Shown: positions 10,880 through 40,340 of the stretch, in pieces
How the letters are laid out: each line of letters opens with the position of its first letter
How positions within the stretch are numbered: the stretch's first letter is position 1
Origin: a virus
Lineage: Duplodnaviria; Caudoviricetes
DNA length: 64,000 nt
Virus record (IMG/VR): IMGVR_UViG_3300037424_002164
Span: 23,780 to 87,779 of that record
Strand: one strand, 5' to 3'
Made by a program: the position numbers and the translations under genes
The notes under the pieces: generated by a model
What the model saw: only the letters and a program-made list of their open reading frames with translations
Databases searched by the model: none
What the model was told of the DNA's origin: nothing

Positions 10880-10925
10880 TACCATGGCTCCTTCTATCTT
10901 TCGCAAGTATGCATCTGACAGCCCA

Positions 10926-10954
10926 ATGATAACCTGCGCAAGTTAGCATGTCAA
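10926..10954 (-). promoter_or_regulatory. Sigma70 promoter (PL-like) with palindromic operator in the spacer
   Basis: TTGACA-17 nt-TATCAT on the minus strand; TAACCTGCGCAAGTTA near-palindrome overlapping the spacer. Confidence 0.8.
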
Positions 10955-10972
10955 GGGATTTTTTCATTTCCT

Positions 10973-11001
10973 TTGCTTTCTTGCGTCCGTGGGCATATAC
11001 T
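10973..11001 (+). promoter_or_regulatory. Sigma70 promoter, probably leaderless
   Basis: TTGCTT-17 nt-TATACT, then 8 nt to ATG 11010. Confidence 0.7.
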
Positions 11002-11009
11002 GAGGTTCG

Positions 11010-11207
11010 ATGCCTAGCAGAAAAACATCACGTGCGGCGGCGGAGATGGCGAAGGCCCGGGCCGCCAGCATGTCTCCAGAACGACGCCGCGAAATCGCTG
11101 GCATCGCGGGCCGCTCCCGGATGACGAGGCTGACCAAGGCGCGCCGGATCGAGATTGCGAAGAAGGCGGCGGCGGCGCGGTGGGGCGTCAAGAAGACCGC
11201 GGGCTGA
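11010..11207 (+). CDS. Small basic putative DNA-binding protein (ARA..MSPERR.EIA..AA.ARW type)
   Basis: Internally duplicated motif; directly downstream of the promoter. Confidence 0.75.
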   Translation: MPSRKTSRAAAEMAKARAASMSPERRREIAGIAGRSRMTRLTKARRIEIAKKAAAARWGVKKTAG

Positions 11208-11214
11208 GGGCATC

Positions 11215-11802
11215 GTGAGACTCTGGCATCCCAACCGCCTGCAATGGGTCGTCATCTGGGCGACGTTTCTCACTGCGAGCCACCTCTCGCTGGATCTTAA
11301 GTTGTCTGATTGGTTGCCGGAATCCGGTCGGTCTTGGGGATTGTTCGCCTATTTAGATCGAGCAGACCGGACACCTAAAGGCCGCAACCATCTAAGCGTG
11401 GTAATTCTGGCGACGGGCGGCTTGATTTTGTGGCACTTTTCGGGGAGGAAGCGGCCGAAAGAGGTAGGGGCGGGATCAGCCGGAGGTTGTGCGAGTCTCC
11501 GAAAGCGCTGCGAGCTACTGTTGCAAGCAAACAAAGCTCTGGATGCGCTCCGGGATTCCGAGGAGGGTACGGCGGACACGGAAGAAATCCAACGGCTTCA
11601 GAATATCCTCGACAGCTTGACACTGCAGGCGATGAAGGAGCAGCCGCCCCCAGAGAGTGAAGCCAAAACTGGCGGGTTGTTCGGCCTCATCGTGTTGATA
11701 GGGATTTTTATGTTGCTTTGGATGGTTACGGACACACCCGAGAGGCGAACAAGCCATCCCGTCTTCGGCGCTCCCGCCTTCCGGCCCGCTCGGGGGTTTT
11801 GA
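11215..11802 (+). CDS. Three-TM membrane protein ending in FGAPAFRPARGF
   Basis: GTG start with GAGGG SD; three hydrophobic segments. Confidence 0.65.
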   Translation: MRLWHPNRLQWVVIWATFLTASHLSLDLKLSDWLPESGRSWGLFAYLDRADRTPKGRNHLSVVILATGGLILWHFSGRKRPKEVGAGSAGGCASLRKRCELLLQANKALDALRDSEEGTADTEEIQRLQNILDSLTLQAMKEQPPPESEAKTGGLFGLIVLIGIFMLLWMVTDTPERRTSHPVFGAPAFRPARGF

Positions 11803-11857
11803 CCCGTGGACCAGCGGAGGAAGCAGGGCCAAGGGGAAGAAGGATCAAAGGGCATAA

Positions 11858-12423
11858 TGGACGCGAAACTCAAAGCGAAACTCACAGAGGCTATCGAGAA
11901 GGCCTACGAACGCAGAGACAAACTCCAAATGCGGTACAGTTTGCGTACCAAAAAGGGCGCACAAAACGTACCGTTTTCTGTACAGAAACTGTACCATTTG
12001 CTTCACGTCGAGGCCCGGCGCAACATGGTGCGCGCCCGACTCTGGCGGAAGATCGAAACGGCGCTCGCCCAGGATAGCGTCGAACGCCTGATCGGCGAAT
12101 TCATCCGCAAGCACCAGCGCTCCGCCGAAGACGAGGCGCAGCTCCGCCTTCCCGGATTTGAATATTTGCCGGCGCGCATCCGCGCTGGAAGGCAGTCGCT
12201 GATATTCGCCAGAGCCACGGTAGCCCAGTTCCTGGCGTACAAGGCGCGTTACGAGCAGCGGGCCGAAAAAGATCAGCGGGTGATGGATGAGTTGCGGCGG
12301 CTGGCTGAGAGCGTGGGCCGATTCGCCGACGGGCATCCCGGCCTTACGATTGCCGAGGCATTGGAGCGGGCTCAAGGAACCGGCGGCGCGATCCGCCTTG
12401 TGGTTGCGGGGGCTGACCGCTGA
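11858..12423 (+). CDS. Hypothetical protein
   Basis: ATG start; protein-like helical sequence. Confidence 0.65.
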
Positions 12424-12456
12424 ACAGGATGGTCCCAGTCGTAAGGAAAGGAAGCC

Positions 12457-13500
12457 ATGAATCGTTCGACGTTCTCAAGTATCGGAATCCCAGTCCTTTT
12501 GCTGTTCGTGTTCGTATCCGCTTTCCCAACCCAGGCCCAGACCTGCATCGGCGAGGTGAAGCCTCTCAAACCCATCAATTGCCAGAATGCGGCGCCGGCC
12601 TGCCTGTGCGACGAGCTGGGCCTGAACTGCCGCTGGATCTGGTCTTGCACTCCACGGGGTTACGACTCCACCACTTCACGGGCGGAGGAGCCGTCACGGC
12701 CAGCCGGAGGCATCGATGCTCGCATCCCGCTGATGGTGCAGCCGCCGCAGGCTGGCAACAGCGGCCTGGACATCCTTCTTCAATACGCGGTCGCTGAACG
12801 CCTTAGCGAACCGCGGACTCCGCCACCTCCTGTGCATCCGACAACAGGCGCAGAATGGAGGGCCGTACTGGCCGCAAAGTCCGTGTACCTGGTCAATGCC
12901 AGCCATGACGGTGGACTCTTTGAAGGTCTCTATGGGCGGCTCCAGAAATGGGGACGGTGGGGCGTGGTCCAGGACGAACGCGACGCCGACCTCATCCTGG
13001 CACTGTCGGATGGCTACGAGTTCAACAAGCCGCGCTATCTGGCGGTTCTGCACCCGAGGACCAGGGCCCGGCTGTTTTTCGTCTCATGCGAGCGCCGAGT
13101 CACGGCGGGTTACACCGCCGGCGTGCTGGTCAACCGGCTGCGCAAGCGAATCGAGGCAATTAATAAACGCCCCATCGTTCCGGTGGCCGACAAGGATCTG
13201 GCGGCAGTCGGGACGAACGCTGCCCCTCCGGTTCCTGAGCGTTGGGCTTCAATGGTCGCGGTCGCGCGGGAGCGTTACGGGGATTGGGATGCGGCAACCA
13301 AGAGTGCCGAGACAGAGAGGCTGGCCATCACACCTGCCATGACGCAGGCCGTTTTCGGGTCGCAACTCGGCGCGGATTTGGTCTACTGGCTCGCGAAGCA
13401 CCCCGAGGAATGCCGGCGGATCGCGGCGTTGTCTCCAACTTCCGCCGCCATGGAGTTGGGCAGGATCGAGGAGCGACTTGCGGCAGTGGTAGGGAAGTAG
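12457..13500 (+). CDS. Secreted chimeric protein: signal peptide, 6-Cys domain, central domain, scaffold-like C-terminal domain
   Basis: AAGGAAAGG SD; MNRSTFSSIGIPVLLLFVFVSAFPTQA leader; TPAM/HPEEC/ELGRIE motifs shared with the scaffold. Confidence 0.8.
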   Translation: MNRSTFSSIGIPVLLLFVFVSAFPTQAQTCIGEVKPLKPINCQNAAPACLCDELGLNCRWIWSCTPRGYDSTTSRAEEPSRPAGGIDARIPLMVQPPQAGNSGLDILLQYAVAERLSEPRTPPPPVHPTTGAEWRAVLAAKSVYLVNASHDGGLFEGLYGRLQKWGRWGVVQDERDADLILALSDGYEFNKPRYLAVLHPRTRARLFFVSCERRVTAGYTAGVLVNRLRKRIEAINKRPIVPVADKDLAAVGTNAAPPVPERWASMVAVARERYGDWDAATKSAETERLAITPAMTQAVFGSQLGADLVYWLAKHPEECRRIAALSPTSAAMELGRIEERLAAVVGK

Positions 13501-13504
13501 AACC

Positions 13505-13729
13505 GTGGCCCATCTCGTCGAACTCATTTTCACCACGGAGATTGCTGGCAGCGGAGTCGAAGGGGATCCGATCCGCTGTCGCCCTCAACTTTGGACGAAG
13601 GACGGCCAGTTGGTCGCGGAGAGCGACCCGGCCACAGGCAAAGGGTTCTTTAACTGGACGGTGAACCTGGGGCCGCCGCCGCACATCCTCAGCCAGCCAC
13701 CGCCCGCGCCGCCACCCGATCATAAATAG
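13505..13729 (+). CDS. Small hypothetical protein
   Basis: GTG start 4 nt after the upstream stop. Confidence 0.5.
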   Translation: MAHLVELIFTTEIAGSGVEGDPIRCRPQLWTKDGQLVAESDPATGKGFFNWTVNLGPPPHILSQPPPAPPPDHK

Positions 13730-14150
13730 CCAGCAGCACCAGCCTCTGCGCCTCCCGGTCCAGCTTCTCGATCTCGTGGTCGACAGACGTCATAACCCGC
13801 GCCGCGGCGCCTGCCGGGTCCACCAAGACCGGTTGCGGCGGATCGAGCGCGCGCTTCGCGATCGGACCCAGGTCCACCGTCCAGTCCCGATTGACGGCCG
13901 ATGTCCTGGCGAGCTCCCGCCACTCGCCGGCAACATGCTGCCAAAGGATATACAGCATCGGCCGCCGGCGATGACCCCAGCCAAGCCCGACCTGGCCGGC
14001 GCATTCCAGGACGAGGCCGGACGCCGGCATCTGCTCCGCCGGGATCTCGGCCCCAGGCGCCAGCAGCTCGCCTTCAAAGTCCCAGCCGCCCCAGATCCGG
14101 TCGGTTTTCATTGCCCGGATGAGCTTCAAGTACGTGATTGCATTCCGCAT
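13689..14150 (-). CDS. Hypothetical protein
   Basis: Protein-like sequence; divergent from the 14334 operon. Confidence 0.6.
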   Translation of the reverse strand: MRNAITYLKLIRAMKTDRIWGGWDFEGELLAPGAEIPAEQMPASGLVLECAGQVGLGWGHRRRPMLYILWQHVAGEWRELARTSAVNRDWTVDLGPIAKRALDPPQPVLVDPAGAAARVMTSVDHEIEKLDREAQRLVLLAIYDRVAARAVAG

Positions 14151-14226
14151 CGCCGTGCGGGGAAGGTGGACCGTGGGGCGAACGGCGTCGCTATCCGGTC
14201 TCGGGGGGGGGGTCACACTCTGATAG

Positions 14227-14252
14227 TGCGTAGCGGCTACGCATCGTGTCAA
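14227..14252 (-). promoter_or_regulatory. TTGACA -35 box with perfect inverted-repeat operator
   Basis: TGCGTAGC-G-GCTACGCA (14227-14243) next to TGTCAA (14247-14252); -10 box weak. Confidence 0.55.
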
Positions 14253-14333: not shown

Positions 14334-14474
14334 ATGGCTAGGAAAAAGGTACTCGTGGACGTCAGGGAGAGCGGAAAGAAGGGCGGCTTGGCGCGGGCCC
14401 GGAACCTCACCCCTGAAGAGCGTAAGCTGTCCGCGCGCAAGGCTGCCCAGGCGCGCTGGGGGAAGAAACGGTGA
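14334..14474 (+). CDS. Small basic protein (GKKGGLARARNLTPEER...ARKAAQARW), paralog of 11010-11207
   Basis: 46-aa ORF read by hand; GTGA-coupled to the next gene. Confidence 0.75.
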   Translation: MARKKVLVDVRESGKKGGLARARNLTPEERKLSARKAAQARWGKKR

Positions 14475-15321: not shown

Positions 15322-15533
15322 GCGACGAACCTAAACCGATGCCCGTGAAACTCCACATCCTGGAACCGATCTGCCAAATGAAGTCGCACGAAGCTCGGAT
15401 GACGGAGGCTGAGGCTCGACTCATTCTGTCCGGTTGGCTCCGGCGGCCGCATCAGTATCTGGAAGACAGAGCTCGGGCAGTGCTTGAGGAACTGGCAGCA
15501 ATGAAGAAGCCAAAACTGGACAAAGCCGAATGA
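15318..15533 (+). CDS. Small protein sharing its N-terminus with the downstream ATPase
   Basis: MSDEPKPMPVKLHI versus MSAEPKPMPIRLHI. Confidence 0.6.
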   Translation: MSDEPKPMPVKLHILEPICQMKSHEARMTEAEARLILSGWLRRPHQYLEDRARAVLEELAAMKKPKLDKAE

Positions 15534-17383
15534 GCGCCGAACCTAAACCGATGCCCATCAGACTCCACATCGCCGAAGACCTGAGCCTGCCGCTCGAGGC
15601 CGTCACCCAGACCTTCGCGATCCTGGCGAAGCGGCGCGCCGGCAAGAGCTTCACTGCCCGCAGGTTCGCCGAGCAGCTCCACCATGCTGGTCAGCAAGTC
15701 GTCATAGTGGACCCCAAGGGGGACTGGTGGGGAATTCGTTCCTCAGCCGACGGCAAGGCGCCGGGTTTACCCTTCGTGATTCTCGGTGGCGAGCATGGCG
15801 ACGTGCCGCTCGAAGCCGGCGCCGGTTCCGTGGTGGCGAAGCTCGTAGTCGAGGAGCGGGTCAGCGTCCTGCTCGATCTTTCTCATCTACGGAAGTCCGA
15901 GGTCGCGCGGTTTATGGGAGGCCCAATGCCTCCGAGGGCGGGGGAGGAAGGTTTTCTGGAGGTTCTCTACCGGCTGAAGGCCCGCGAGCAGTATCGCACG
16001 CCGGTGATGCTCGTGATCGACGAGGCCGATGCCATCGCCCCGCAAAGGCCCATGAAGGGAGAGGAGCGCATGCTTGGTGCGGCCGAGGATGTCGTCCGCC
16101 GCGGTGGGCAGAGGGGTATCGGCTGCATGATGGTGAGCCAACGTTCGGCCGTCCTAAACAAGAACCTGTTGACCCAGCTCCAGGTGCTGGTCGCGCTGCG
16201 CACCATCTCTCCGCAGGATCTGGGGGCGATAGACGCATGGACCGACGTGCACGGGACTGAGGCAGAGCGCAAGACGCTCAAGGCCAGTCTGCCGGCACTC
16301 CCGACCGGCGACGCCTGGTTCTGGTCTCCCGGTTGGCCGACCGCGGAAGGCATCTTCAAGAGGGTTCACGTCCTGCCGATCAAGACCTTTGATTCGGGAG
16401 CCACTCCGGAGCCTGGCAAGAAACGGATCGAGCCGAAGAACCTGGCGGACATCGACCTGGAAACCCTGAGCCGGCAGATGTCGGCCACCATTGAGCGTGC
16501 CAAGGCGGATGACCCGCGCGAGCTGCGCAAACAGATTGTCACGCTTCAGGCGGAACTTCGGAAGAAGGGGGTTACGGCGCCGGCTCCGGATCCGGACGCG
16601 ATCGAGCGGGCAAAGGCGGAGGGTTACGCCGCCGGCGTGAAGGACGGGCGGGCGGACACGGATATCATTGCTGAGCACTGGGAGCGAGCGGCAGCGTTGA
16701 TCGGACAGGCGGAGTCGGTCATGAGCAGCGCGTTCACAGCGGTGATTTCCTCCCGGAACCAGCCCAAGCCGGTATTGTCAATGCCCGCCCCTGCGCAGGT
16801 TGTCAACCGGCCGGGAGTAGGCAACTCGCCGCTGACAATTGCGGAGCGCAAACTCGCCGCAGAGCGGCTCAAATCGGTAGGGGAGCAGATCAGTTTCGCG
16901 CGGGTCGTTTCCAGAGAGTTCGAGCGCAGCAACTCCGGCCTGCGGCGGATGCTGATCGCCCTGGCGCAGCGGAATGGCCTGAGCGCCCGGCAGCTCGGAG
17001 TCCGGGCGGGGATGTCCAGCTCGAGTGGAACGTTCGGCACGTATATGGGAAAAGCGCGGTCGGAAGGCTGGATCACGGGCAGCCGGGATCGGCTGGAAAT
17101 CACCGAGGCGGGTCGGAAGGCTCTGGGATCATACGATCCCTTGCCGGAGGGCAGGGAACTGCTGGCCTACTGGCTCGGAGAGTTGGGCGGGGGCGCGGCG
17201 CGGATGCTCGAAGAGCTGGTAAAGCGTTACCCGCGCGCGATGACGGCCGAGGAAGTGGGCGAGGCGGCTGGAATGTCCGCGGCGAGCGGCACGTTCGGAA
17301 CCTACCTCGGGAAACTGCGGACGCTGGAGCTGGTCCACGGCGGGCGCTCGGATCTGAAGGCGAGCGAGGAGTTGTTTGGATGA
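15530..17383 (+). CDS. HerA/FtsK-like P-loop ATPase (DUF87-type) with two C-terminal winged-helix repeats
   Basis: Walker A AKRRAGKS, IVDPKGDW, Walker B LVIDEAD, RRGGQRGIG.MM.SQR; repeated AGMS..SGTFGTY.GK. Confidence 0.85.
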   Translation: MSAEPKPMPIRLHIAEDLSLPLEAVTQTFAILAKRRAGKSFTARRFAEQLHHAGQQVVIVDPKGDWWGIRSSADGKAPGLPFVILGGEHGDVPLEAGAGSVVAKLVVEERVSVLLDLSHLRKSEVARFMGGPMPPRAGEEGFLEVLYRLKAREQYRTPVMLVIDEADAIAPQRPMKGEERMLGAAEDVVRRGGQRGIGCMMVSQRSAVLNKNLLTQLQVLVALRTISPQDLGAIDAWTDVHGTEAERKTLKASLPALPTGDAWFWSPGWPTAEGIFKRVHVLPIKTFDSGATPEPGKKRIEPKNLADIDLETLSRQMSATIERAKADDPRELRKQIVTLQAELRKKGVTAPAPDPDAIERAKAEGYAAGVKDGRADTDIIAEHWERAAALIGQAESVMSSAFTAVISSRNQPKPVLSMPAPAQVVNRPGVGNSPLTIAERKLAAERLKSVGEQISFARVVSREFERSNSGLRRMLIALAQRNGLSARQLGVRAGMSSSSGTFGTYMGKARSEGWITGSRDRLEITEAGRKALGSYDPLPEGRELLAYWLGELGGGAARMLEELVKRYPRAMTAEEVGEAAGMSAASGTFGTYLGKLRTLELVHGGRSDLKASEELFG

Positions 17384-19669: not shown

Positions 19670-20028
19670 TCCAGCTCCAGGTAGCTGGTCACCCGCCACC
19701 CGTCGTAGTCCGGCCAGCGGCCCTGCGGATCGTGGAACTGCCCGTTCTCGTAGTAGACCCAGTGCCAGCGCCGGTTGCCGTTTTGCCTCATCACCAGCAG
19801 GGCGCGCCGGGGGTACTCCGGCCGGGCCCGTGAGATGGCATGGCAGCGGTCTACGGACCTGACACCCAGCCGGCGCAGAGCGGCGATGATCTCGCGGGTG
19901 CTGGTGCCCCCACGCCGGCCGTGCCCCACCGCCTCAATCGCCTTCGTGAGCGACACGCCGGCGGCCATGGCCACGCAACACTGGCCGCACAGGCTGCTGT
20001 CGATGGGCTGGCGCACGAGAACGGTCAC
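19666..20028 (-). CDS. Peptidase C39-like (papain-fold) protein
   Basis: Q...LCG.CC.AM, GTS, HWV, DP (Cys-His-Asp). Confidence 0.7.
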   Translation of the reverse strand: MTVLVRQPIDSSLCGQCCVAMAAGVSLTKAIEAVGHGRRGGTSTREIIAALRRLGVRSVDRCHAISRARPEYPRRALLVMRQNGNRRWHWVYYENGQFHDPQGRWPDYDGWRVTSYLELD

Positions 20029-20504
20029 GAGCTCTCCTGGATGTAGCCCGCCGGCGGGTTCTGGTTCAGCCAGATAGCGGTTTCGGCCTCCCTGCGGCCG
20101 TCGAGCACGTGCGGAACGCCGCCCGCCCAGTGCCAGCGCTTGATCTCGGAGGGAACCGCCGCCTTGTCTCCGGCGTTGAGCTTCCGGAGCAGGGTCGAGG
20201 CTCGCAGCGCGCTGGTTCCTACGTTATAGGCGAACGAGACCAGCGCATCGTACTCGTGCTGCTCGAGCGGGACAGCCACGATTCCGTTTACCACCTTGGC
20301 TACCGCCCGCACTTTGACACGCAGGCGGTGCGCCGCCTGTTGTTTCGTAAACACCCGATCGCGGTAGAACTCGATTTCCTCCGCGGTGAGCTGCGTTCCG
20401 TAGCCGATCGCCCGCTTCGAGGAGCCGGGCGGGTCCGGGTACATCCTGGCCCGGAAGCCCTCGGCGAGCTTCAGGAAGGAGATGATGTTCTCGGACGGAA
20501 TCAT
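20025..20504 (-). CDS. Endolysin, GH24 phage lysozyme family
   Basis: EG....Y.D, IGYG, DALVSFAYNVG, STLLRKLNAGD, W..AGG..L.GRREAE. Confidence 0.92.
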   Translation of the reverse strand: MIPSENIISFLKLAEGFRARMYPDPPGSSKRAIGYGTQLTAEEIEFYRDRVFTKQQAAHRLRVKVRAVAKVVNGIVAVPLEQHEYDALVSFAYNVGTSALRASTLLRKLNAGDKAAVPSEIKRWHWAGGVPHVLDGRREAETAIWLNQNPPAGYIQESS

Positions 20505-20546
20505 GGTTTTGGGGGACAAGCAAAGACGGTAAAGGACGGTACAAAC

Positions 20547-23500
20547 TCAGAAGCCGGCGGCTGGCTTGAAGGCTGGAGTGCCGAAGGTCTTACGTTTGGT
20601 CGTTCGTTGTCGCTCCAGGGCTTTGGCGCGCCTGTCCTGGTTGCTGGCTCTCGCGACTAAGCCCGGAGCGAACAGATCCAGGGATTGGCGGAGGTATTTG
20701 TTGCCCTGGGAGTACTTTTCCGCCGGGTCCAGGAAGCCGGTAGACTCGCCGAGGGTCTGGCCTACGTCGCCAAAGAAGCTGTTCAGCTCCATGCCGGCGG
20801 CGCGCATCCGCGCCCCCATCGTCGGCCATCCCGCGGGCGTATTGGGATCGACTGACGGGAAGAACTGCGGGTTCAGCCGGCCTGCTTGATCGCGGAAACT
20901 GGTCAGGTAGGTCTCTTTGAGGAAGACCCCGGTGAATACGGAGCGGGGCACCGGGCCGAGGCCCGGGTGGACGAGTGCGTTCAGGCTGTCGCGCTGGGCC
21001 GCCTCGAGTTGCTGCCCGAAATTCCCTCCCAACTGACGTGTTTCGAATGCCCCCGTAAGCCCCAGGGCGCGGGCGCCACGGCCGACCAAGGGGTTAAAGG
21101 CATTGAAGCTCAAATAGCCAGTTTCCGGTCCGTCGCCCCAGAGCGCCCGGCCGAGCTTGGAGTAGCGGTACTTATCGAGAGGGCCATTGCCCCCGCCCAC
21201 CGGAAGCTGAAATAGCTTGGCGCGCCTGTCTTCGGTGGGATATTTGCCCGTGAGCAGCTTCGAGGCGATGACCCAGAACGCGAGCAGCCCGAGCGCGCCC
21301 GCGGTTAACAGGTACATCAGGCGCAGCGCCCGCCAGCCTTTGGGCATCGGCCCCAATCCGGTCCAGGCGTTGACGCCGTTCGCCAGCGCAGTCGATCCGG
21401 CCGTGAAGAACGGAGCGATGCCCCACTCCTTCAAGGCGCGCTCGATCTCGCTCCACAACTCCGGCGTGTAGTTGCCGAGCTGGTTCACAAAGAGAGACCG
21501 CTCTCCGGCTTGGCTTTCCTCGGGGAAGAGCGCCTTGGCAATGTCCCACATCACGATACGCGCCCGCGCATCGAGTCCCTTCGGGCCGTAGAGCATCGGC
21601 CCCAGCGTGAGGGGGAAGTGTTTCAGCGTGGCTCCAGTGGCTTCGGCGTACTTGCGGCTGTAGGTCTGCGATCCATACTTGGAGGGCACTCCTCCGATAT
21701 CGGCCACTTCCAGCAGCTTTTCCAGATTTTCCGGCGTTGTGGGGTCGGTCTGGAGCAGCACCTTCCACACCACCGCCAAGGACTTGACCAGCGGCACGGA
21801 CACCGCTTTGTCGGCGAGGGTAGGACCCAGAAACGGCGTGTTCGAAACGAGCGCGCCCAGCACGTTGCGTGCGTGAAACACCATATCCAGGGGGCCGATC
21901 AGCGAGAGGGTGTTCAGGGTTCGGACGATTTTCCGCGACGGATCGGCCGAGTGAGGTTGGTGCTCGAGGATCGGCTTGAGTTCGCGATGCAGCCACGCCG
22001 GCAAGATGTCCATGCGGGTCTTCAGGGGAATGGTCTTCTTATCCTTGATAAGAGTTCGCGCTTCGGAAACCGGCACCTGAACGCCCGTGTACTCGACGCC
22101 ATTCCAGACGATGGTGTCCTGCCCTTGCTCAGCCGGCTGGAGCAGCCCTTCCTCTTCTAGCACCTTCAACAGGGCAGCCCGGTCGTTGGCGCGAATGGCG
22201 CGGCTCAGCCGTTCCTGGAAGGCTTCCATCCCGACGTCGTAGCCTTCCGCCAGGCCGGTCGCGAATTTGTTGGCGGCGTTTTTCGGCTTCTTGTAGGTCA
22301 CGCGCGAACCGAAAAACCCGGGATTGCGGTCGAACGGAATCAAGGGATAGTAGGTATCGAGCGGCCCCAGAGAGTCAGAAAACACACCTTCATTCAGGGC
22401 GTGGTTCTGCGCCATCGGCGCTTCGACCAGGCGCTTGTAGGCCCGCAAAGCGTCCTGCACTTGCGGATCTGAAGTCACCCTGTCGTACCAGCGCGGCTCC
22501 ATCACTTCGGCAACGTTCGCCGCGGCGTCGGAGAAGGTCTGCCCCAGAAACTCCCGCAGGGTGTCCCAGTCCGCTGCTTCATCCAGGGCCGCCGCGGTTT
22601 CAACTACATCCTGCGGGATCCCGCGCTTCCCCTGAATCGCGCTCAGCAGACCGGCAAACTCCTCTTTGAACACTTCCTGGAGCTGGGTGTCCTCCATTGT
22701 CGAGATTTGTTCGGCGAATCGTTCCCAGCGTTCCCGGATACCGCGGAGCCTCGACTCGATCAGCGCCAGGCGCAACTCGGGCCAGGTGAAATCGGAGCCT
22801 TTGAGCGCATCGAGGATTGTTGGAACAGCCGCGCGCAGGATGACCCTGGACTTGGCGTTGGATGAGGCGGTGCGGAGGGCTTCCCGGTGCACGCGGGCGC
22901 TGGCGCGACGGGTCTGGCCGAGATTGCGGCGATAACGGGTTTCCAGTGGTCCGAACACCCCGCGCAAGCCGCCGTAGTTTACTTCGGCGCTTTCCTCCCC
23001 GAATCTCTCGGACAGCCATTCGCCGATGGAAGCCAGGTCCATGTCCCCGGCTTCGCCGCGCCAGAAGGATTCAACCGGCCTCACCTTGCGCAGGCTCCAG
23101 TCGTTCGCCTCCAGATCCTCGGTGTCGTAGACCATGCTCCGGGCTGCCGTATCGACGTAGAGCGAGTCCGCACCCTTGGCGGCCCGCTCCACGGCCTGGC
23201 GGAGCCGGGAGGGATCGACCGCCTCGAGGCCCTGGATCTCGATCCCATTGCCGCGCGTGCGGATGTAGCCCGAGCGAAGGAGCTGGTCCTTATTCTTGCC
23301 GCGGAAACGGCTCAGATTCTGGTGCTCGGCCTCGGCGCCGAGGGGGATCACTTCGCCTTCCGGAGTGACCCAGAAGCCAGCGGTGCCGCGGCGGGGGGCT
23401 ACTGCTTGGGTGGCGGGGAGGTCGGCGGCTTGGCTTCCTCGGGCGGGAACACCTTGTCGAACTCCTCCGAGTAGTTCCCCCGGAGCTTCGCGCGCGCCAG

Positions 23501-26500
23501 GCGCATAGCCCGGCTGGTAGCCCTGGCGTCGAGCTTCGGCGGCTTTGGTTCGGGTTTCATCGAGGACTCCATTCAATTGTGACGCAATCCGCGGCAGCCG
23601 GGAGACAATTTCTCCCCCGTGCCGCTCGATCAGATAATCCAGATACCGGCTGAAGAGCTGCTTGGCCTCGTCGCGCGAAATGCCCATGCGGGCCCAGCCG
23701 CGCGGCCCTTGCGCCAGGTGCGCGCCGATCTCGGCGGCCATGGCATGCATCTCGTACTCGCTGGTGATCCGCGGGTAGCCCGTTTCGGTGAGTCCCCGAA
23801 GCGCCCGGCGGGCGAGCTGGTCTTGGAGGAATGACTCGGCGTCAATGTGTTCGACGCCAGCCTTCCCCTCGCCGCCTGCCTCCTGTGTCTGGAACCAGTG
23901 GAAGCGCTCGTGCTTGATGCGCTCCCGAAGCCTCTGCCAACTGTCTCCCGGGCGGTGGCCGACGATCAGCAGGGGCCGGAAGTCCGACACTCCCGCTTCC
24001 AGCTCCGCGGCGATCGCTTCAATCTTCGCGCGCGCCTCGGGCGAGACGTTCGGTGCGACTTGGCGCAGCGTGTCCACCATCCGCAGGACGCTCGTGGTGG
24101 TGAAGTGCATCCCGGCCCAGGTTTGCTGGTGTTTGGGAAGCACCGCTTTGAGCAGGTTGAGCGCGTTCTGGTCGGCCCACAGGAAGCGGGGCTCGGTTTG
24201 ATCGTGCAGGAATAGCTTCGGATCGGCGGCCGCCAGCTTTTCGAATTGCGGATAGTAGGTGGGCGGGTGCTCCGGGAGGGAGTCTTCCTCCAGGGAGGCG
24301 AGATCGCCCTGGGGTGGATTCTCCGCCGGGGGATTTTGGGTCGCGTCCACCTTCGCTCTTAGCCGTTCGAGCGATTCCTCTGGGGTCTCGTCCGGCGCCT
24401 CGAATTTCTCCTGGAACCGCTCGAATTTCTCCTTGAATCCCTTGGGCATCACGGCCCAGTTCCAGTCGAGTGAAGCCTCAGCCTGGCGCGCGAACGCAAC
24501 CGCGTGGTAGTCCTGGTGGAAAAAGTTTCCCATCCGCTTGCCGCTGGGAAGGTGGATGACCTCGTACGACTTACCCTTGGTCACTTCCCTGACCCCAAGG
24601 TACTTGCCGACGACGCGCACCTGGACCGGGTACTTGCCGTAGTCGCTCGCTGCAAAGATCCGCCGGGACGGGAACCAGTCCGCATGCATCGAGGTGGTTG
24701 GATCCAGGCGCATCGGCCGCAGGGGATCCCGCCGGTTCGCCTCTTGTTCCTCGTCCGCGCCGAGCGCTTGCCGGTCATTCGCTTCCGCGCCGAGCTGGTC
24801 GGATAGTTCCTGCTGCCGGCGGAGCATCGTGCGGAGCTTCTCTTCACCCTTGAACGGCTGGCCAAGCCTGCTTTCGAGCTCCACCTGCTGTTTCTCGAGT
24901 CGGCGCAGTTGATCCTTACCGTGTTGCAGGCTCTCTTCGAAGCCGCGCAGATGGTTGTCGGCCGATGCGATGGTGCCGGCGGGGTTGGCGTCATAGTTGA
25001 CGCTGACCCGGTAGGTGCCGGAAGCCGCCCGCAAACGAAGTTGCGGCGCACTGAAGTACTTGAGCTCAAAGCGGCTCTCCATCTTGTCCCATTCCACATG
25101 GACCTGAGTCGCCCGGGAAAGGTCCAATTCCTTCAGACCAAAGGCATCTCGTTTATGGATGTCGTGCCAGTTTTGTTGGAATCCTTGTGCCGTTACCTGG
25201 TAGTACAGCCACTTGTTGTCCGGCGTCATCTCGCGAGCGAAAAGGAGGTTGGCGCCGACACTCTGGTCGGTCTTGGAATGCCTGACCCCAAGTTCGGCGA
25301 AATGTGGCGTGGCCTCGAGCGGAATGCCGTGGTACGTCGTTTCGATTGACTGCGGTTCGGTGATGACTCCGACCTTTTTCAGGCGCTCGATGAGGATCGG
25401 GGCGCCCTCGGCCCGAATTTCCTTCTCCTCGTAGCGCTTCCCGTCGATGACCAGCGCACTGTCGGAGTTCCGCGCGGCAATGTCGGTGGTGAAATTCTCG
25501 ACCCGCTGTCTCGCTGCTTTGGTCTCCTCCGGCAGGGTTGCGAGGGTTTGGGAGATCGTGGCCTGTTCGGTCAGCCAGGTTCCGCGCATGATCTCCGCCT
25601 TCAACACTTCCTGGTCGAGGATGATCTTCTCCCGCACCAGCGGGTTGCCGGAGGATACGGCCTTCGCCTGCTCGTAGCTCATCACCGCGGGCGAAAGCTC
25701 CTCGATCCGGCGTACTGCCGGATCTCCGTTCATGAACTGCTGGATCGGTTTGGCCTTCGCCGAAACCGTCTCCCACATGAAGGCGTCGAACGTTCCTTCC
25801 GTCATGTAGCGGTAGATGCGGACCGGGATCTTGTGCTCGTCCCAGAGTTTGTTGCCCTGGCGTTTGATCCGTCCGTCGCGCTGCTCGATGTCGCGCGGGC
25901 GCCACGGAGCGTCCAGATGGTGGTTGGCGATCAGCCGTTCCTGCACGTTCATGCCCGCGCCCATCTTTTCGGTCGATCCGATCAAAACGCGCACGTCTCC
26001 GCGATTCACCCGCTCGTAAAGCAGGAGCTTCTGTATGTCGGTCTTGGCGTCATGGATGAAGGCAACCTGTTCCGGCTTGAAGCCTCGCGCGATCAGCTTC
26101 TGCCTGATCTGGCCGTAGACCGTGAATATCTCCCGCTGCTCGTCGGTGGTCACGACTTCTTCGGTGACTTCCTCCTCCTTTTCGTCGTAGAGCGTCTCCT
26201 CTTGGTCCGCGACGTTGGCCACTTCCTCTGCGGCTGCCGGTTTCGCTCGGGTGACTTTCTCCGACTTCGGGGTGGAGAGATCCAGGAAGACGAGTTGCGC
26301 GGCGCGATACTGGCCGAATTCCTTGTTGATGGCGACGATGTTGTCGATCGCTTTCGCGACTTTGCTGACCGGCTCCTCTTCGGCCAGCGGATCGACCAGC
26401 CGCATATCGAGCGAGGCCTTGCGCCCGTCGCTCGAGAGTTTCAGCATGTTGTCGATCGAGGGGTCCTTGATAACGCCGTTGCGGATGTCGTCGGCACGCT

Positions 26501-29500
26501 TGCCAATCTCCAACACGTAGGCCTTCTGCGCCGCCGATGCCGGCGCGACGACGTCGATCGGGCCGCCCTGGTAGACGGCGGGGGTGGGCAGGTTGAGCTT
26601 TTCCGCGGTCTGGATATCGGCCGCCAGCCGGAACATATTCATCAGCTCCGGAGCGTTGTGAAACTCCGCGAACCGGCTGCGCGAAATGAAGCGGCCGCCT
26701 TCAGGGGCTACCTCCATCTGGGTGCGGACTTTTCCGAACGTCTTCGCCCAGGCGTCGAACTGGTCCAGGCCCTCGCGCTCGAGATACTGGGGAATGAGGT
26801 ACCGCATCATCGTCCAGATTTCGGCGATGCTGTTCGACACCGGGGTGCCGGTGGCAAACACCAGGCCGCGATCGCCGCCGTGCAACTGGGAGACGTACCG
26901 GGTTTTGAGAAGCATGTCGGTGGCGCGATCGGCGTCGGAGTTCGGCAAGCCGGCCACGCGGTCCATCATGGTCAGGTAGCCCAGGTTCTTGAAGAGATCC
27001 GCTTCGTCCACGAAGAGCCAGTCCACGCCCAGCTCCTCAAAGGTCACCCCGGTATCCTTCTTTTCCCGCTTCGTTCGTTTCTCGATCTTCGCCTCGAGTT
27101 GCTTCTTGCGCCGGACGAGCTGCTTCACCGTGGGGTCTCGGCCCGCTTCGCCCTTCTGCTTGCCCTTGCTGAAGGTTTCAATGGCCGCCTCGAGTTCCGC
27201 GACCTGCGCATCCATGAATTCCTTGAATGTCTCGTCCTTCACCGCGAGTAGCTGGAAGTGCGTGTGCCCGACGATCACGGCATCATAGTTTCCGGTGGCG
27301 ATCCGGCTCATGAGCTTCCGGCGGTTCTGCTTGTCAAAGTCCTTTTTCGTCGGCACCAGAATCTGGGCGCCCGGGTAGGCCAGCAGGAAGGCGTCTTTCC
27401 ATTGCCCAACCAGGTGATTTGGCACTGTAATCATCGGCTTGCGGGCGAGACCCAGGCGGCGCAGCTCCATGGCCGCCATGGTGATTTCGAGCGTCTTGCC
27501 GGAGCCAACCACGTGAGCGTAAAGCGTGTTGCCGCTTTGTATCGTTCGCCATACGGCTGTCTTCTGGTGGGGATCGGGGTCCTGATTGCGCAGCCAGGTC
27601 CGGTTCAGCCCTGGAAACGTCTGGTGGGAACCATCGAACTCGCGCAGTTTGAGATTGTTGCGTTCTTCGTTGTACTTGCCTTTCAGCCGGTTCGCTCGTT
27701 TGGAATCGGACCAGAGCCATTTGCTGAACTGATCGACAAGCGCCCGTTGCTTTTCCACTGCCTCGATGGTGGCCTCGGCATTTTTCACCATCACTGTTGT
27801 CGGGTAGCCGCCGGCGGTATACCCCACCTCCTCATCGCGGGCCACGGGCATCTTCCCGTTGATGGCGAACTCCAGCAACTCCATGCCGGAGAAATACGCG
27901 GTGCCGTAGTCCACGCTGTTGGCGACGCCTTTGTCGCTGAAGGTGTATTGCGGGCGGATCGCGAAGCTGCCGGTGAGCGGGACGTACTTCACCAGATCGG
28001 TGGCGCGCGCCTCGGACTCCTCGACCCGGAGCACTTCCCGCAGGAAGTCGGAGTAATCGGTGTCCGGGATCCATGTCGCCCCGAGCGGCGCATCGATGTC
28101 GCCGATGTCGAGGTCCCGCGGCTGGATTGCTTTCAGTGCTTCGACGTTGGGCAGGAATTGGGGGTCCTCTCCGGCGGCAAACTCAGCGTCCCGCAGTTTC
28201 TTGCGCACGTTGCCGGAGAGGTATTCGTCCCTGGTTTCCCAGCTCTTCGTGATGGGGTTCCGGTAGATTTTGCCGCCCAGTTCCTGGCGCAGCTCCTCCG
28301 GCGTGCGGCCGGTCAACTCCTGCATCCGGCTCCAGTCGAGCCGCCCGAGATCGTTGAGCGAGACCGCCAGCGCCTCGGCGCCGGTTTCGACGCTGGTGAT
28401 GCGCGGCGGTTTCTGAATCGTCCGCTCGCGGAACATCGCCCGCTTGGTGGCGGTCTTGGTGTCTTTGTTGTAGTCCTCGAGTGCGGTGAGCAGCGGCCAG
28501 TCCGGATCCTCCCCAAAGACCAGGGAATTGCCGTTGCCATTCACCGGGCCGTGCCGTTTGACGAAGTGGTCGTAAACTCGGTTCAGGGCTTTGCGGGCGG
28601 CGAGGATCTCTTTCTCTTCGAATTCGTGGCGCTGGGTTCGGATGACCTCCCGCGCGGCTCCGCGCAACTCGATCAAGGCTTTGGCGCGATCGAGCTTCTT
28701 TCCCTTGAGAGGCAGTGGCCGGAAATAGGCGCCCTCCCGCCGGACCAGCGCGCCGTCGACGTAGGCGATCTGGCCGTCCTTCATGAACTGCGCGTCGGGG
28801 TAGTTTTCAACCAGGTTGTCGCGCGCGCCGGAAGGCTGCTGCTCCCAGGACGGGATAACGCCCTCGGGCAGGCGGGCGAGCATCTTGTCCAGCTTGTCGA
28901 GCGAGAATTCGCCAAACAGCTCGGGGTAGCCGCGGCGATACTGCGTGCCGGCGCCCATCTTGCCCATCATCATTTCAGGGTGCCGGTGGAAGTACTCGTT
29001 GACGTCCACCTTGAACCCGTCGTCCGTGTCCAGAGTCCGTGACTCGACCCACTTCTCGTCGGAAACGGGGACGCCTTCGGGAATCCGCCGGCGTAACGCG
29101 ATGATGTCAACCGTCACCGAGGTACCGGCGTTGGCCAGGAAGGTGTCGCGCGGCAGCCGGATCGCTCCCAGCAGCTCGGCCCGCTCGTTCACCCAGCGGC
29201 GGAAGGCCGGAGCTTTGGAATCCATCGTGTAGCGGGACGTGATGACGAGCATCACTCCGCCCGGGCGCAACTTCTCGACCGATTTGGCGATGAAGTAGTT
29301 GTGGATGTTCTCCGTCAGGTACGGAGTGCGCCGGAACGCCGCATCGTTGACTCCGACGTTGCCAAAGGGCACATTGCCGATCACCAGGTCGAAGTAGCCG
29401 TCCGGCAGGTTCGTTTCCTGGTAGGGCTTGATGACGATGTTCGAGCCAGGGTAAAGCGCCCGCGCCATGGCGCCGGTGAGAAGATCCATCTCGACGCCGG

Positions 29501-32500
29501 TCCGCCCGGTGCCGGGCGTCAGATCCTCCGGCATCATCATGAAGAAATTGCCGCTGCCCATCCCGGGCTCGAGCAGGGAGCCGCCCGCGCGGAATCCGAG
29601 GCGGCGCGCGGCATCCCACATGGTTCGGGCCAAGTCCCGGCGGGTGTAGTGAGCGTTGATGGTGGATTCCCTAGCGGCCTCGAATTCCTCCGGCGTCAAC
29701 AGGCCCTCAAGCTCCTCGCGGATCCCGGCCCACTCGCGCTTGTAGCCGAAAATGCCGTTGGCCAGCTCCGAGTCGCCCCAGCCGACGTACTTGGCGATCG
29801 CCTGCTGCTCTTCGATGGTGGGGGCGCGGTTCTCCGCCTGAACCTGCTTGACGATACGAATGGCCGCGAGGTTGTTCTGGGCTTTGGTGCGGGCGCCGCC
29901 CCGTTCAGCCTGGGCGGCCTGTTCAGGGGTTAGGCGGAAGTCTCCATCGATAGACCGAGGTTCGACGGCGTCAACTCGAGGTTGGGCTGCTCCTCTTCCT
30001 CCGGGAGGCGATACCACTGGTGGTCGGCCAGTTCGACTACCTTCTCCCAGCTCAGGCCCTGCTGCGTCAGGCTGACCCGTAGCTCCACGGTCAGAAACGC
30101 CGCCACGAGCACCAGGCGGTAGAGCACTTTCGCCTTCTCCATCTCCGCGCACATCTTCGGGCGGAACTCCTGCCAGTGTTTCAGGACCGCCTGGGCGAAG
30201 GGCGTCTCCTCCACCTCTTTGTGGGCGGCCGGCTCCGGCAGTTTCCGTGCCTGTTCGAGGGTGAGTTCGGCGGTCTCCGGCATCGGGTTGCTCCGCCTCC
30301 ATTATGCTCTTTTTTTCGGACTCGGGAGCCGTGATTTGATCGGGTTCAGCGGCTTCGGGTACCAAGGGTTCTACCGCTGCTTCAGGGGACGGAAGCCCTG
30401 CTTCCTTCCCCTCGACCCCTTCCTTCCTTTCGGACAGCGGCTTGGCCGTGTACTCCTCGTCGTCCCAGAAGTAGTTGGGGGCCTGGTTTTCGAGGCGGGA
30501 TTCGGCGGCATCGGCCGCCATCCAGCGGGACATCAGTGAATCGCCCGCGTGGTCGGCTTCTTCCTTGGTCGCGAAGAACTGGCCGTTGGGCGTCCACTCG
30601 TTCTTGACCTTGACGTAGACGCGGTAGCTTTTCGCGGGCGCCTTTACCGACTGTTCGGGGCCGCCCGTGTCCTTCCGGAGATCCCGGGCATCAAACGGCA
30701 CGTATTCGATGGTCTGTGTGGCTACATCAGGTGCACCTTCACCAGCGGGATGCGCGCGGACACGGTACTCGGTCTCGCTCACCGACGTGATGTAGCCGTA
30801 CTTCTCCTGGCCGCTCGCGTGTGTCCAACGGATGGTGTCTCCCTGGGAGAATCGGCGGGGGCCGGGCTCTGGGCGAGGGGTAGCCGGTGCCTCGGGTGCT
30901 TTCTTTTCCTGCGCTGCCTTCAGCGCCTGGGTGCCGGCAGGGTTGCGAGCGAAGGATATATTTCCCCCTTCCTCTGGCCCGCGGCGAATCAAACCCAAAC
31001 GCAGCAGTTGGGCGAGTCCGTTATTGAAGGCATCCCGCGTGAGGTTTTCAATATCGGAGGCAACCGATTCTTCAAGGCTGCCGCTTTGAGTGACGCGGTT
31101 GGTTTCGAGGTTTCTGATGATGGAACGCTCGATAACACTAAGCTGAGCGGCTTCAGGGGCACTTGGCGTCTCTGTCGTGGGCTGCCCATGGGGTGTCGCA
31201 ACGATCTTCCGGCTGATCCGCTGCACATCAGGGAGCTTGTCGGCGTCGATGATCCACGCCTTCTGTTCTCCGTTCCACCTTCCTCCCAGCTTCTTGATCT
31301 GATTCCGGTGGACGTAGGTGTCGCCGGTGAGGGCGTACTGCCCTGCCTCGGGTGTTTCTTTCCTTGTTGACTCGCCCGCCGGGAGCGCTTCGGGGGCCGG
31401 TTGACCGCTCGCCATCCGGGGTTCCGTCTCCGTCTTGGCGGACGTACCCGGGCGTGCCGGGGGTTGAGCGGGTTTTTCTCCCTGTCCTGCCGCCTCCTGC
31501 TTCGGGGCTTCAGTCTTCGCCTTCTCCTCGACCTTCTCAACCCTGCTCACGTGGACCGGACGGAACATCCCGAACCTCTGATCCGGCTCCTCACCGATGA
31601 ATACAGTAAAGCCCTCAACGCGACTGACGTAACCTTCCCGAGTCTTTCCTTCCTTGTCGGTCCAGCGGACGTGGTCATTCTTCTGGAACCGCAACTCCGG
31701 AGACTTCAATTCCTGAACGACACCGCCGCCCGGAAGTTTGTGGGTGACAACCGGGTCTGGAGCGGGCGCAGGCTTGGCAGGCTCAGCCGGTGAGCCCTTC
31801 AACTCGATCTCCGTCTGCTTCCCGCTCTTGTCGGAGAACACGATGCGGTCGAGCGTGATCTCCTGGCCGGTGATCCCGGGGATTTCCTTGCCGGTGTACT
31901 GCTTGCCTTTGCCGTCTCTCAGGTAGGCGATGGTCGCGTGCGGCTTATAGCCCGGGTGCGTCTCGGTGTTCGGCAGCGCGTCTGCGATCTTCTCGTTGAG
32001 CCGCGCCAGGTCCGGAGACTCGACGTCCACCTTGAGTACGTCGCCGTTGTCGGTGCCGGCGAAGATCGAGGTTTTACCGAGCTTCAGTTTAACCGGCGGC
32101 TCATTGGCGATCAGTTTGCGAACGGCTTCCGGCTCGCCGCCGTGCAGGCCGTACTTGATGGTGATGTGCGGCTGGGTCTCGCGACCCTTCGCGGCTGATT
32201 CCCCACCGTACTTGGCGCCCGCTTCAGATGCCAGGTGCTCATCCGGGATGGTTTCGCCAAACGCAAGGATCCTTGCGGCAATCGGCCCTTGCAGGTTGAC
32301 TTGCGTGGACGCATAGTCGAACTGTTCCTTTTCCTCCGGCTTCACGCCCCTCATCCGGTCGGTTTCGCCCTCGATCCAGTTGCTCGCGTCGTCGTACAGC
32401 TTCTGGGCGTGGGGTACGATCCAGTCTCCGAACTCCTCGGAGAGTGCCGTGGTGAACCGGCCCATGCGGTGGTGGCCGGCGAGAATCTTGTGGGCCGCAA

Positions 32501-37298: not shown

Positions 37299-38714
37299 TT
37301 AGATCGGCTCGGCCTGGATCTTGCCGTTTACGACGCTCTTGACCCGGTAGAGTTTGCCGCCGGGTCCACGGACGGTCTGCCCCTCGGCGTAGGTCACGCC
37401 TTTGACCGTCCATTTCTTGGCGGTTTTCGGTTGACCGGGCGCAGCCGGAGCGGAGGGTGCGGGTTTCGCCGGCGGTTGTGAAGCCGGCTGTCCGTTCGTG
37501 GGTTTCGCGGTGGCTGGCATCGCAGCCGCCGGAGGAATCACTGGCTGGGGCGGCGCACCCTCACTTACCTTCGAGAGCGGAACGCCCTGGGGCGCAGAGA
37601 ACTCCCCGACCTTGGCCTTTTCCCGGATCTTCTTCTGGGCGGCCTGGAGGTCGGCAACCTGCTTCGTTGTTTCGTCTAGCTGCTGCTGGAACACGCGCTG
37701 CAACTCGGGGGTGGCGATGTATTCCTTGACCTCTTTGCCTTCCGGGTCGAGGGCATTGAAGCTCCTGGCTTCCTTGCCTTTCGCCTCGGCGTTCAGCTTC
37801 ATCAGGCGCCCGAGGCGTTCCCGCTTGCGATGCAACTCCTGTTCTTTTCCCTGGAGCCCGTCGTGCTCCTTCATCGCGTCGTCGAGTTCCTTCTTGCCGG
37901 CCTGTGACTTCGTCCAGTCGAAGCGCTCGCCGGCAAGCGTACCCTCTCCTCCCGCCTTCGACTTCTTGATGGGCTGCCCGGAGGGAGTTTTGGCCTCCAC
38001 GGAGGTTCCGGTGGCCGGGCTTACCAGGTACGTGCCCTCCTCGGTGGACATCTCGAAGGGCCTTCCGCCCCGCACTTCCTCGTCGGACTTCGCCTTTACG
38101 CCGGGCATTTCGGCTTGGTGCTTCTCGGTCTTCTGCGAGCTTTCCAGGTCCTTGATGCCCGCTTCGTGGATCTGCACCGCTGTCATGGCCTGCTTCGCAA
38201 TCTGTCCGATGGCAGCCTGTGTCTGCTCGTTCCAGCCCTTCGCGCGCCATTGCTCGGCCTGCTCGGGGGTGATGAGCTGTTTCTGGACAGCGCTGTCGAT
38301 GCCACGCAAGTATGAGGGCTCGTCGGTGACCGAGGCGGCGATCGAACCCAGTAGCTCCGCTTTCGCCTTCGCATTCTCGATTCCAGCCTTGCCCAGCGCC
38401 AGATTCTCTTTGCGCGAATCATCCACGGTCTTGATGATGGCCAGTTGCCGTTTCTGCGACACCTTGCCGGCCACCTTTTCGGGGAGTTTGTACAGGTCAC
38501 CCTTTACTTCTTCGAACGCCTGGCGCACAACTTCGTCGTCGGCCTCGTCCTGCTTGCGCTCGCGCAGCTTCTGCTCGTGCTCCTGGAACTGGATCTCGTT
38601 CAGCTTGTTCCGGTCGAGCAGGGCCTTGAAGGACACCGCCCGGCCATAGGCCTCCATGGGGTCTGGGACCTGGATCGGACGCACTTGCAGGGGAATACTG
38701 GGATCAATGGGCAT
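37299..38714 (-). CDS. Ejection/DNA transfer protein (P22 gp20-like position)
   Basis: Helical Q/K/E-rich protein between the gp7-like and gp16-like genes. Confidence 0.7.
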   Translation of the reverse strand: MPIDPSIPLQVRPIQVPDPMEAYGRAVSFKALLDRNKLNEIQFQEHEQKLRERKQDEADDEVVRQAFEEVKGDLYKLPEKVAGKVSQKRQLAIIKTVDDSRKENLALGKAGIENAKAKAELLGSIAASVTDEPSYLRGIDSAVQKQLITPEQAEQWRAKGWNEQTQAAIGQIAKQAMTAVQIHEAGIKDLESSQKTEKHQAEMPGVKAKSDEEVRGGRPFEMSTEEGTYLVSPATGTSVEAKTPSGQPIKKSKAGGEGTLAGERFDWTKSQAGKKELDDAMKEHDGLQGKEQELHRKRERLGRLMKLNAEAKGKEARSFNALDPEGKEVKEYIATPELQRVFQQQLDETTKQVADLQAAQKKIREKAKVGEFSAPQGVPLSKVSEGAPPQPVIPPAAAMPATAKPTNGQPASQPPAKPAPSAPAAPGQPKTAKKWTVKGVTYAEGQTVRGPGGKLYRVKSVVNGKIQAEPI

Positions 38715-40275: not shown

Positions 40276-40340
40276 GTTGCACCTCATCCGTATGGGTTTC
40301 CGAAAGTAGTCGCTCTCCGGGATCGGAACCTTGGGGCTCA

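Follow-up and report, generated by a model that had tools for sequence, protein, structure and literature searches.

We analysed a 64,000-nucleotide stretch of viral DNA (Duplodnaviria; Caudoviricetes), below called the window, which spans positions 23,780 to 87,779, the final 64 kb, of the 87,779-bp IMG/VR record IMGVR_UViG_3300037424_002164. On the plus strand of the window, positions 11010-13729 hold five open reading frames (ORFs), here denoted A to E, that are separated by gaps of 4-50 nt and preceded by Shine-Dalgarno-like sequences (Table 1). Two of them, B and D, encode predicted envelope proteins that carry pieces related to virion proteins. The close-set array lies behind a divergent promoter region and runs against the late genes, which bears out the existence and orientation of the operon as proposed in an initial annotation that had been made from the sequence without database searches. 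The leftward promoter of the divergent region reads TTGACA-17-TATCAT (11/12) and the rightward one, on direct reading, TTGCTT-17-TATACT, 8 nt upstream of the ATG of A. The GC content at third codon positions is 0.65-0.73 in B to E compared to ~0.8 in the adjacent genes, which fits the status of accessory genes. The region had been called a cI-like promoter; there is no cI-type helix-turn-helix (HTH) protein in the record, and the element is best named an accessory operon with a sigma-70-like promoter upstream of it. The anatomy of the operon and its proteins, as described here, is in our judgment very probably correct.

B begins with a conserved hairpin of two transmembrane helices (residues 1-85); after an orphan linker come a third transmembrane helix (residues ~153-171) and a 24-residue tail. 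Its start is most likely GTG 11215, with GAGGG 5 nt upstream, rather than TTG 11155. HMMER recovered 31 relatives of B, with E values down to 8e-18, each of which aligns to residues 1-90 only. Q10, W11, H23, G42, Y46, L47 and W73 are invariant in the family alignment, B contains the hairpin signature of the family, PNRLQWxIIW...H...WGLxxYL...LLxWQ, and helix 2 is followed by a conserved basic stretch. None of the families in Pfam, PHROG, PADLOC and NCBIfam matched B (E <= 0.01-0.1), the structure atlas gave no usable match for it, and searches of viral contigs with the B-family alignments and with the family member P0052 returned no related loci. Judging from the predicted helices and these alignments, B belongs to an as yet unnamed family of inner-membrane proteins from phages. 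In many of the relatives, the hairpin is extended by a third helix and a tail that varies. Basic-aromatic tails ending in G-K/R-F/W are present in P0057 (...SFGSFRGNAFNSPFGKF), P0065, P0052 and P0040, and tails with the pattern P-x-SF-x-PD in P0039, P0041, P0053 and a protein of the metagenome contig L003. Because the two-helix members end strongly basic, the positive-inside rule predicts the hairpin to be N-in/C-in, and the third helix would therefore place the tail in the periplasm. The predicted periplasmic location appears clear for the SFxPD group and less clear for B, which has four arginines in its tail.

The C-terminus of B resembles that of a 5551-aa giant ejection protein encoded by the same phage. 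The last 12 residues of the two proteins are identical in nine positions and in the same register at the C-terminus (the longer ends are ...HPVFGAPAFRPARGF in B and ...RKTFGTPAFKPAAGF in the giant). Across the six frames, the motif pattern was found at two places only, the ends of B and of the giant, and this pair ranks first among 73,153 anchored pairs of C-terminal 12-mers from the ORFs of this genome, the runners-up being one pair with 7/12 and eleven pairs with 6/12 identities, so that this part of the initial annotation stands. At the DNA level, 25 of the 36 bases of the motif are identical and there is no similarity around it, which rules out a recent intragenomic copy of DNA. A PEP-CTERM, GlyGly-CTERM or LPXTG-type sorting signal was rejected as well, by reasoning only, because motif, helix and basic cluster do not follow one another in a fitting sequence. 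The B tail is closer to the giant of its own phage than to any other tail in the B family. In the giants, the tail is an add-on: 28 of the 30 homologues lack it and end near ...LRQQRTGTR, the only other tailed giant is P0015 (...VPDFSKASGF), and a strain variant present at low depth in the sample of origin retains the last eight residues (...AFKPAAGF). A search of viral contigs with the C-terminus of the giant alone returned no related loci.

The giant contains an N-terminal SLT domain and 2H, methylase and SNF2 modules, and in these modules is similar to other giant multi-enzyme ejection proteins (T7 gp16-like SLT head; P1 DarB-like methylase/helicase). Its last 550 residues (20547-22202, minus strand) are conserved, with 36-53% identity, in all 30 proteins of 3,100-6,900 aa, whereas the 13-residue tail copied by B is present in two. 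The enzymatic middles vary among the 30 giants and include methylases, SNF2, 2H, phosphoglycerate-mutase-like, DnaJ and other domains, the picture being one of a putative constant channel module with swappable cargo.

D is a predicted secreted chimera that opens with a signal peptide, the hydrophobic core of which spans residues 11-19, followed by a six-cysteine module. The A-Q(S/T)C site and all six cysteines are kept in two relatives, P0002 (57% identity) and P0003 (40%, without the middle domain); P0004, a bacterial relative, comprises a signal peptide and a D-type middle domain only. The nearest solved folds that Foldseek reported for the middle domain are the periplasmic lipoproteins PelC, GNA1162 and LptE, at probability 1.0 but with weak scores (E 1.6e-3, TMt 0.37-0.41) and 9-14% identity. 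Unlike PelC and LptE, D has no lipid anchor: the predicted cleavage site lies at about TQA-QTC and there is no L-[AS]-[GA]-C. The structural neighbors of D in the atlas are hypothetical proteins of Acidobacteriota, in clusters below threshold. Within the segment encoding the middle domain, a 40-base stretch (13116-13156), which encodes the conserved motif YTAGVLVNRLRK, recurs in both sediment DNA metagenome runs that contain the analysed stretch, on several contigs from other organisms that have nothing else in common with it, which suggests that bacterial homologues of this domain are common in the habitat.

The C-terminal domain of D is paralogous to a segment of the scaffolding protein of the same phage, with a tblastn E value of 9e-17 at 42% identity and a Smith-Waterman score of 188 compared to 36 +/- 6 for shuffles. 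It also matches phrog_8865, 'head scaffolding protein' (1.7e-10), PF09306 (weakly, positions 210-247) and the scaffolds annotated in EBPR podovirus 1, DSL-LC05 and Xanthomonas phage PBR31, all three encoded between portal and coat. When this domain was folded alone (pLDDT 86.5), its top four PDB matches were the P22 gp8 structures 9KYW, 9KYV, 9KYX and 9KYY (TMq 0.53-0.58, ~25% identity), with another chain of 9KYV ranked sixth (0.63). A second PDB structure search with the domain gave generic helical matches only (Z < 5), and a homologue search with only the last 93 residues of D returned D itself alone. In P22, the gp8 base domain dimerises and is seated on the portal wing, the column has the ejection proteins placed at its inner end, and a hook binds the coat (PMC12005531); residues 258-345 of D correspond, in sequence and predicted fold, to the second base segment, including the base-dimer helix (PMC12005531). 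The scaffold-domain likeness recognized in the initial annotation is thus confirmed.

Unlike gp8, D has no column domain, C-loop or coat-binding hook, and the part upstream of its base-like domain consists of the signal peptide, the cysteine module and the alpha/beta domain. Its gene is located ~50 kb from the real scaffold gene, in an early operon and outside the portal-scaffold-coat block. In a phylogenetic tree, D groups with P0002 and P0003 (support 0.925; 57-62% identity among them), and the scaffold of the window groups with that of the related record G001 in the other clade (0.958). The D-type domains lack the 11-14-residue insert of the scaffolds of the window, G001 and P0005 and resemble the un-inserted EBPR1 type. 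By its separate clade and the missing insert, the exported domain is an older, separate lineage that does not track the resident scaffold. Given this separate lineage and the lack of DNA-level similarity, the operon cannot be described as carrying copies of the phage's own segments. A search of the available literature found no paper on a scaffolding-protein domain bearing a signal peptide.

A further likeness proposed for D, a gp20-like N-terminal motif, did not survive the comparison with shuffled sequences. The best local alignment between D and the 471-aa late protein is exactly this motif (Table 1), with a score of 37; this is also the mean for shuffles, 94 of 200 of which reach it, so that the likeness is at the chance level. 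What stands of the initial claim is that the envelope proteins of the operon carry virion-related pieces, one predicted inner-membrane protein the motif of the giant and one exported protein the scaffold domain; the gp20 motif and the origin by copying do not. As far as can be read from the sequences, B and D were both assembled by domain shuffling, with a family anchor, a host-like periplasmic domain and a re-used scaffold dimeriser as parts, next to the orphans C and E. D would thus indicate that modules of capsid assembly can find a second use in the envelope and, even without a decoy role, the operon is a clear case of accessory phage genes apparently built from virion, host and orphan parts.

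Table 1. Positions of the operon, its proteins and the related late-gene features in the window
Feature	Position	Strand	Description
Divergent promoter region	10906-11009		separates the leftward early operon from the cassette
A	11010-11207	+	basic protein of 65 aa in which the repeat ...RR.EIA.KAAAARW occurs twice; phrog_2384 (unknown function)
B	11215-11802	+	195-aa predicted inner-membrane protein, three hydrophobic helices (hydropathy)
B C-terminal motif	11764-11802	+	FGAPAFRPARGF and stop
C	11857-12423	+	soluble helical protein, 188 aa from the likely ATG 11857; 205 aa if GTG 11806
D	12457-13500	+	347-aa predicted secreted chimera
D signal peptide and six-cysteine module	12457-12666	+	predicted; residues 1-28 and 29-70
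D motif called gp20-like	12712-12750	+	IDARIPLMVQPPQ; likeness at chance level
D middle alpha/beta domain	12847-13176	+	residues 131-240; pLDDT 73-89
D scaffold 'base'-like domain	13228-13491	+	residues 258-345, six helices; protein ends 2 residues later
E	13505-13729	+	74 aa; phrog_14088 (unknown function), E 2.9e-8
Endolysin	20025-20519		lysis genes thus away from the operon
C-terminal motif of the 5551-aa giant	20547-20585	-	FGTPAFKPAAGF and stop; gene 20547-37202
N-terminal motif of the 471-aa protein	38670-38708	-	IDPSIPLQVRPIQ; gene 37299-38714
Own scaffolding gene	63409-63999	-	357 aa; spans the contig junction; between portal and coat
Own scaffold segment paralogous to the D domain	63577-63882	-	

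B and D are linked by the contig L003, which carries an A-like gene followed by a B-like three-helix protein, the tail of which (...PESFVPDQPLSAIAPTDAHLLEAWKTKVAAARERY) runs off the contig. In D, P0002 and P0003, the match to this tail covers the linker and the first base-domain helix and extends to W..VAAAR.RY. The scores are 55, 58 and 72, respectively, each of which is reached by none of 500 shuffles; no alignment was obtained with true scaffolds. In P0003, SFIPD immediately precedes the D-type domain. Taken together, the L003 fusion and the SFIPD of P0003 suggest that the D-type domain is either secreted or carried on a B-type anchor, both predicted to be periplasmic.

Co-variation of these features was read on five related records, a set that does not include the contigs of P0057, P0065, P0052, P0040, P0002 and P0003 (the latter two 1.2-1.5 kb). 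The window has the tail of the giant, B with its tail, and C, D and E. In L004, a fragment of G004, the tail of the giant, C, D and E are absent, and the B-like protein is an 81-aa hairpin; this locus keeps A, the tail-less B, a 187-aa gene and the A paralogue. G001 (66.5 kb; coat 74% identical) has the tail of the giant and no B-family gene; C, D and E were not found there, nor was any other protein carrying the tail. The complete G002 (87.7 kb) has neither the tail of the giant nor a B-family gene. The variable parts of the operon behave as accessory genes, variable among otherwise syntenic relatives. The window has both tails and G001 only that of the giant, so that their co-occurrence is not strict among the five records. 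Because the tail is present in G001, where no B-family gene was found, the tail of the giant would have a role without B.

The presence of the tail without B in G001 would also fit a reading under which the tail is a linear motif, basic and aromatic in character, that binds the membrane interface or some component of the host envelope, and the base domain is a mere dimeriser, with the operon serving, for example, periplasmic-side receptor masking, envelope remodelling or lysis timing. The chief known activity of the base domain is indeed self-association (PMC12005531), the middle domain of D resembles proteins located under outer-membrane channels (PelC, LptE), and other members of the B family have similar basic-aromatic tails with different sequences. 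Against such generic roles count the register-exact match of the B tail to its own giant, above any tail of the B family, and the location of the lysis genes elsewhere. We consider these roles rather unlikely, and rate the corresponding purposes of the operon in the same way.

C, D, E and the B tail are missing from relatives with the same structural genes and thus do not appear to be core functions. The same absence speaks against the possibility that B and D serve the cycle of their own phage, for example, if both tails were handled by a single factor of the phage or the host, be it a C-terminal protease or the ClpX-like unfoldase of the phage. Unfoldases of the ClpX type recognise C-terminal tags, this phage encodes a ClpX-like AAA+ protein, and the tail is located at the extreme C-terminus of both B and the giant. 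However, D is predicted to be exported and the B tail is predicted to be periplasmic. In our estimation, an own-cycle role is very improbable.

The initial annotation treated the operon as a lysogeny cassette, a designation that the record does not support. The first and last 127 bases of the contig are identical (1-127 and 87653-87779, the latter corresponding to 63874-64000 of the window), so that the record amounts to a complete genome, circular or terminally redundant, with a length of 87,652 bp; the virus database entry lists direct terminal repeats (DTR) and rates it 100% complete. Neither a tyrosine integrase nor a cI-type HTH protein was found in the record, in which the sole recombinase is a 198-aa protein of the resolvase type, and no RNA run is listed with the stretch. 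In view of these findings, the terms 'prophage' and 'lysogeny' are unsupported. The late block on the minus strand encodes the portal, scaffold, coat, adaptors, Hc3, the phrog_598 ejection protein, the 471-aa protein, the 5551-aa protein and the endolysin; the portal (L001:918-3038) is of the P22 type (PF16510, E 1e-171). The phage is a podovirus of sediment origin with a P22-type portal, and an acidobacterium is its probable host.

The most complete form of the decoy idea, as put forward in the initial annotation, is that prophage-expressed B and D carry segments of the phage's own proteins that poison the trans-envelope channel of an incoming phage. The precedent given for it was confirmed: the inner-membrane protein SieA of P22 targets the conduit of ejection proteins, and the mutations that allow escape map to the C-terminal regions of gp16 and gp20 (PMC10883804). 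The predicted location of B and D in the envelope and the likenesses of the tail and the scaffold domain, both of which are real and uncommon, fit this model, as does the requirement of the scaffolding protein for loading gp16 and gp20 into the P22 procapsid, for which an earlier study is cited in PMC12005531. Against it count the complete DTR genome with no integrase and no cI-type repressor, the chance level of the gp20 motif, the lack of strict co-occurrence of the tails, and the assignment of the D-type domains to a clade of their own that lacks the insert of the resident scaffold lineage. Furthermore, D has the base domain rather than the column, where the ejection proteins sit (PMC12005531). 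All in all, we find the model in this full form distinctly improbable.

The comparison with SieA nevertheless remains informative at the level of parts. Similarly to SieA, B is predicted to be a small multi-helix inner-membrane protein of a podovirus with a P22-type portal, and it bears the C-terminal motif of the giant that occupies the gp16 position. Unlike B, SieA is expressed from a prophage, whereas this genome shows no lysogeny module, and mimicry has not been described for SieA; no sequence relation between the two was detected via the family libraries, which is not a direct comparison with the SieA sequence. Because B copies the terminus of the giant in exact register and the C-terminal regions of gp16 and gp20 are the vulnerable part of this type of channel (PMC10883804), competition for a docking site is a concrete hypothesis, under which the B tail would compete with the tail of the incoming giant for a docking partner at the inner membrane. 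Tail mimicry as the mechanism of exclusion nonetheless appears unlikely to us.

Of the jobs that early phage proteins of the membrane and periplasm might have, the most plausible is superinfection exclusion. We accordingly favor, tentatively and with somewhat less than even confidence, the reading of the element as an accessory envelope operon that plausibly acts in superinfection exclusion; to the function taken by itself we would commit slightly less. Under this reading, the operon would place two phage proteins, B and D, in the host envelope, where D would most likely dimerise through its base domain, by analogy with P22 gp8, and, as suggested by the L003 fusion, would cooperate with B; the altered envelope of the infected cell would then stop phages of the same kind from delivering their DNA. 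Given the known biology of the base domain, self-association of D is favored over the capture of ejection proteins. Co-folding of D (residues 131-347) with B (residues 166-195) gave a score of 0.02, which is no verdict and evidence neither way.

Several observations weigh against superinfection exclusion by envelope-located B and D. The L003 fusion ends with the contig, 16 residues into the domain. G001 combines the giant's tail with the lack of a B-family gene in 66.5 kb, and the complete G002 has neither. The topology of the B tail is uncertain, given its four arginines and the basic residues that flank the third helix of the FGSF...GKF subgroup on both sides. No known defence or exclusion family in Pfam, PHROG, PADLOC or NCBIfam was matched. 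Finally, the partners of the P22 base domain, namely, the domain itself and the portal wing, stay out of the periplasm.

The operon can also be compared with a broader class of phage exclusion proteins. Llp of T5, Cor of phi80 and N15, and Imm and Sp of T4 are envelope proteins, made early or from a prophage, that keep later phages from using the receptor or from bringing in their DNA; of these, the lipoproteins Llp and Cor target FhuA, unlike D, which has no lipobox. No homology of the operon proteins to T5 Llp, phi80/N15 Cor or T4 Imm and Sp was found, and virion-protein domains are not known from any of these. Exported or tethered scaffold base domains together with a tail-copying membrane protein might represent a new kind of exclusion, by periplasmic mimics of internal virion proteins, which we deem improbable. 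A membrane protein that carries the terminal motif of an injected channel protein would provide a concrete, mutable handle on the assembly of the trans-envelope DNA channel of podoviruses and on its blocking by SieA-like proteins.

An A-like gene precedes a B-like gene in the three loci that could be read, those in the window, L003 and L004. A paralogue of A is located at 14334-14474, in a second divergent region beyond a 187-aa gene; the other A-like loci are L003:159-857, L004:9421-9651 and L004:11545-11847. No relatives of C were found apart from a weak match to phrog_9129, with no match among GenBank phages, and E likewise has no match among GenBank phages. Two further searches of genome contigs, with the queries A5 and A7, returned no related loci.

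Several side observations concern the surroundings of the operon and the rest of the genome. Small basic proteins with the pattern ...(S/T)PE.R.EIA.KAA.ARW come first behind each of the two divergent promoter regions, with phrog_2384 as their only family match. The 187-aa protein, which belongs to no known family, is encoded on the minus strand (13689-14252) by a gene that runs towards the operon and overlaps E by 41 nt; the protein is 56% identical in L004, where it is again encoded between the B-like gene and an A paralogue. A contig joint 11187>16180 in the sequencing runs was discarded as unreliable, one side being only 21 letters. In the late block, the phrog_598 ejection protein (40341-41435, minus strand) ends in MNPKIPVPQSNYFGGG before its stop and the next gene begins with MSPKVPIPESDYF, the same 13-residue motif (region 40275-40390, minus strand). 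The ATG of that gene overlaps the stop of the ejection protein gene (TGATG, ~40341), and a signal-peptide-like stretch, MRTVQAFLCAALFCAALDAQ, is located 20 residues past the motif. Outside the window, the record encodes two sigma-70 region-2 proteins (L001:3210-3878 and L001:11947-12549), the ClpX-like AAA+ unfoldase (L001:5091-6191; AAA_2 and ClpB_D2-small) and a protein with a DnaA N-terminal domain. The rightward early operon encodes a 617-aa ATPase of the HerA/DUF87 type (15530-17383), the best PADLOC match of which is mad8 (E 8e-16).

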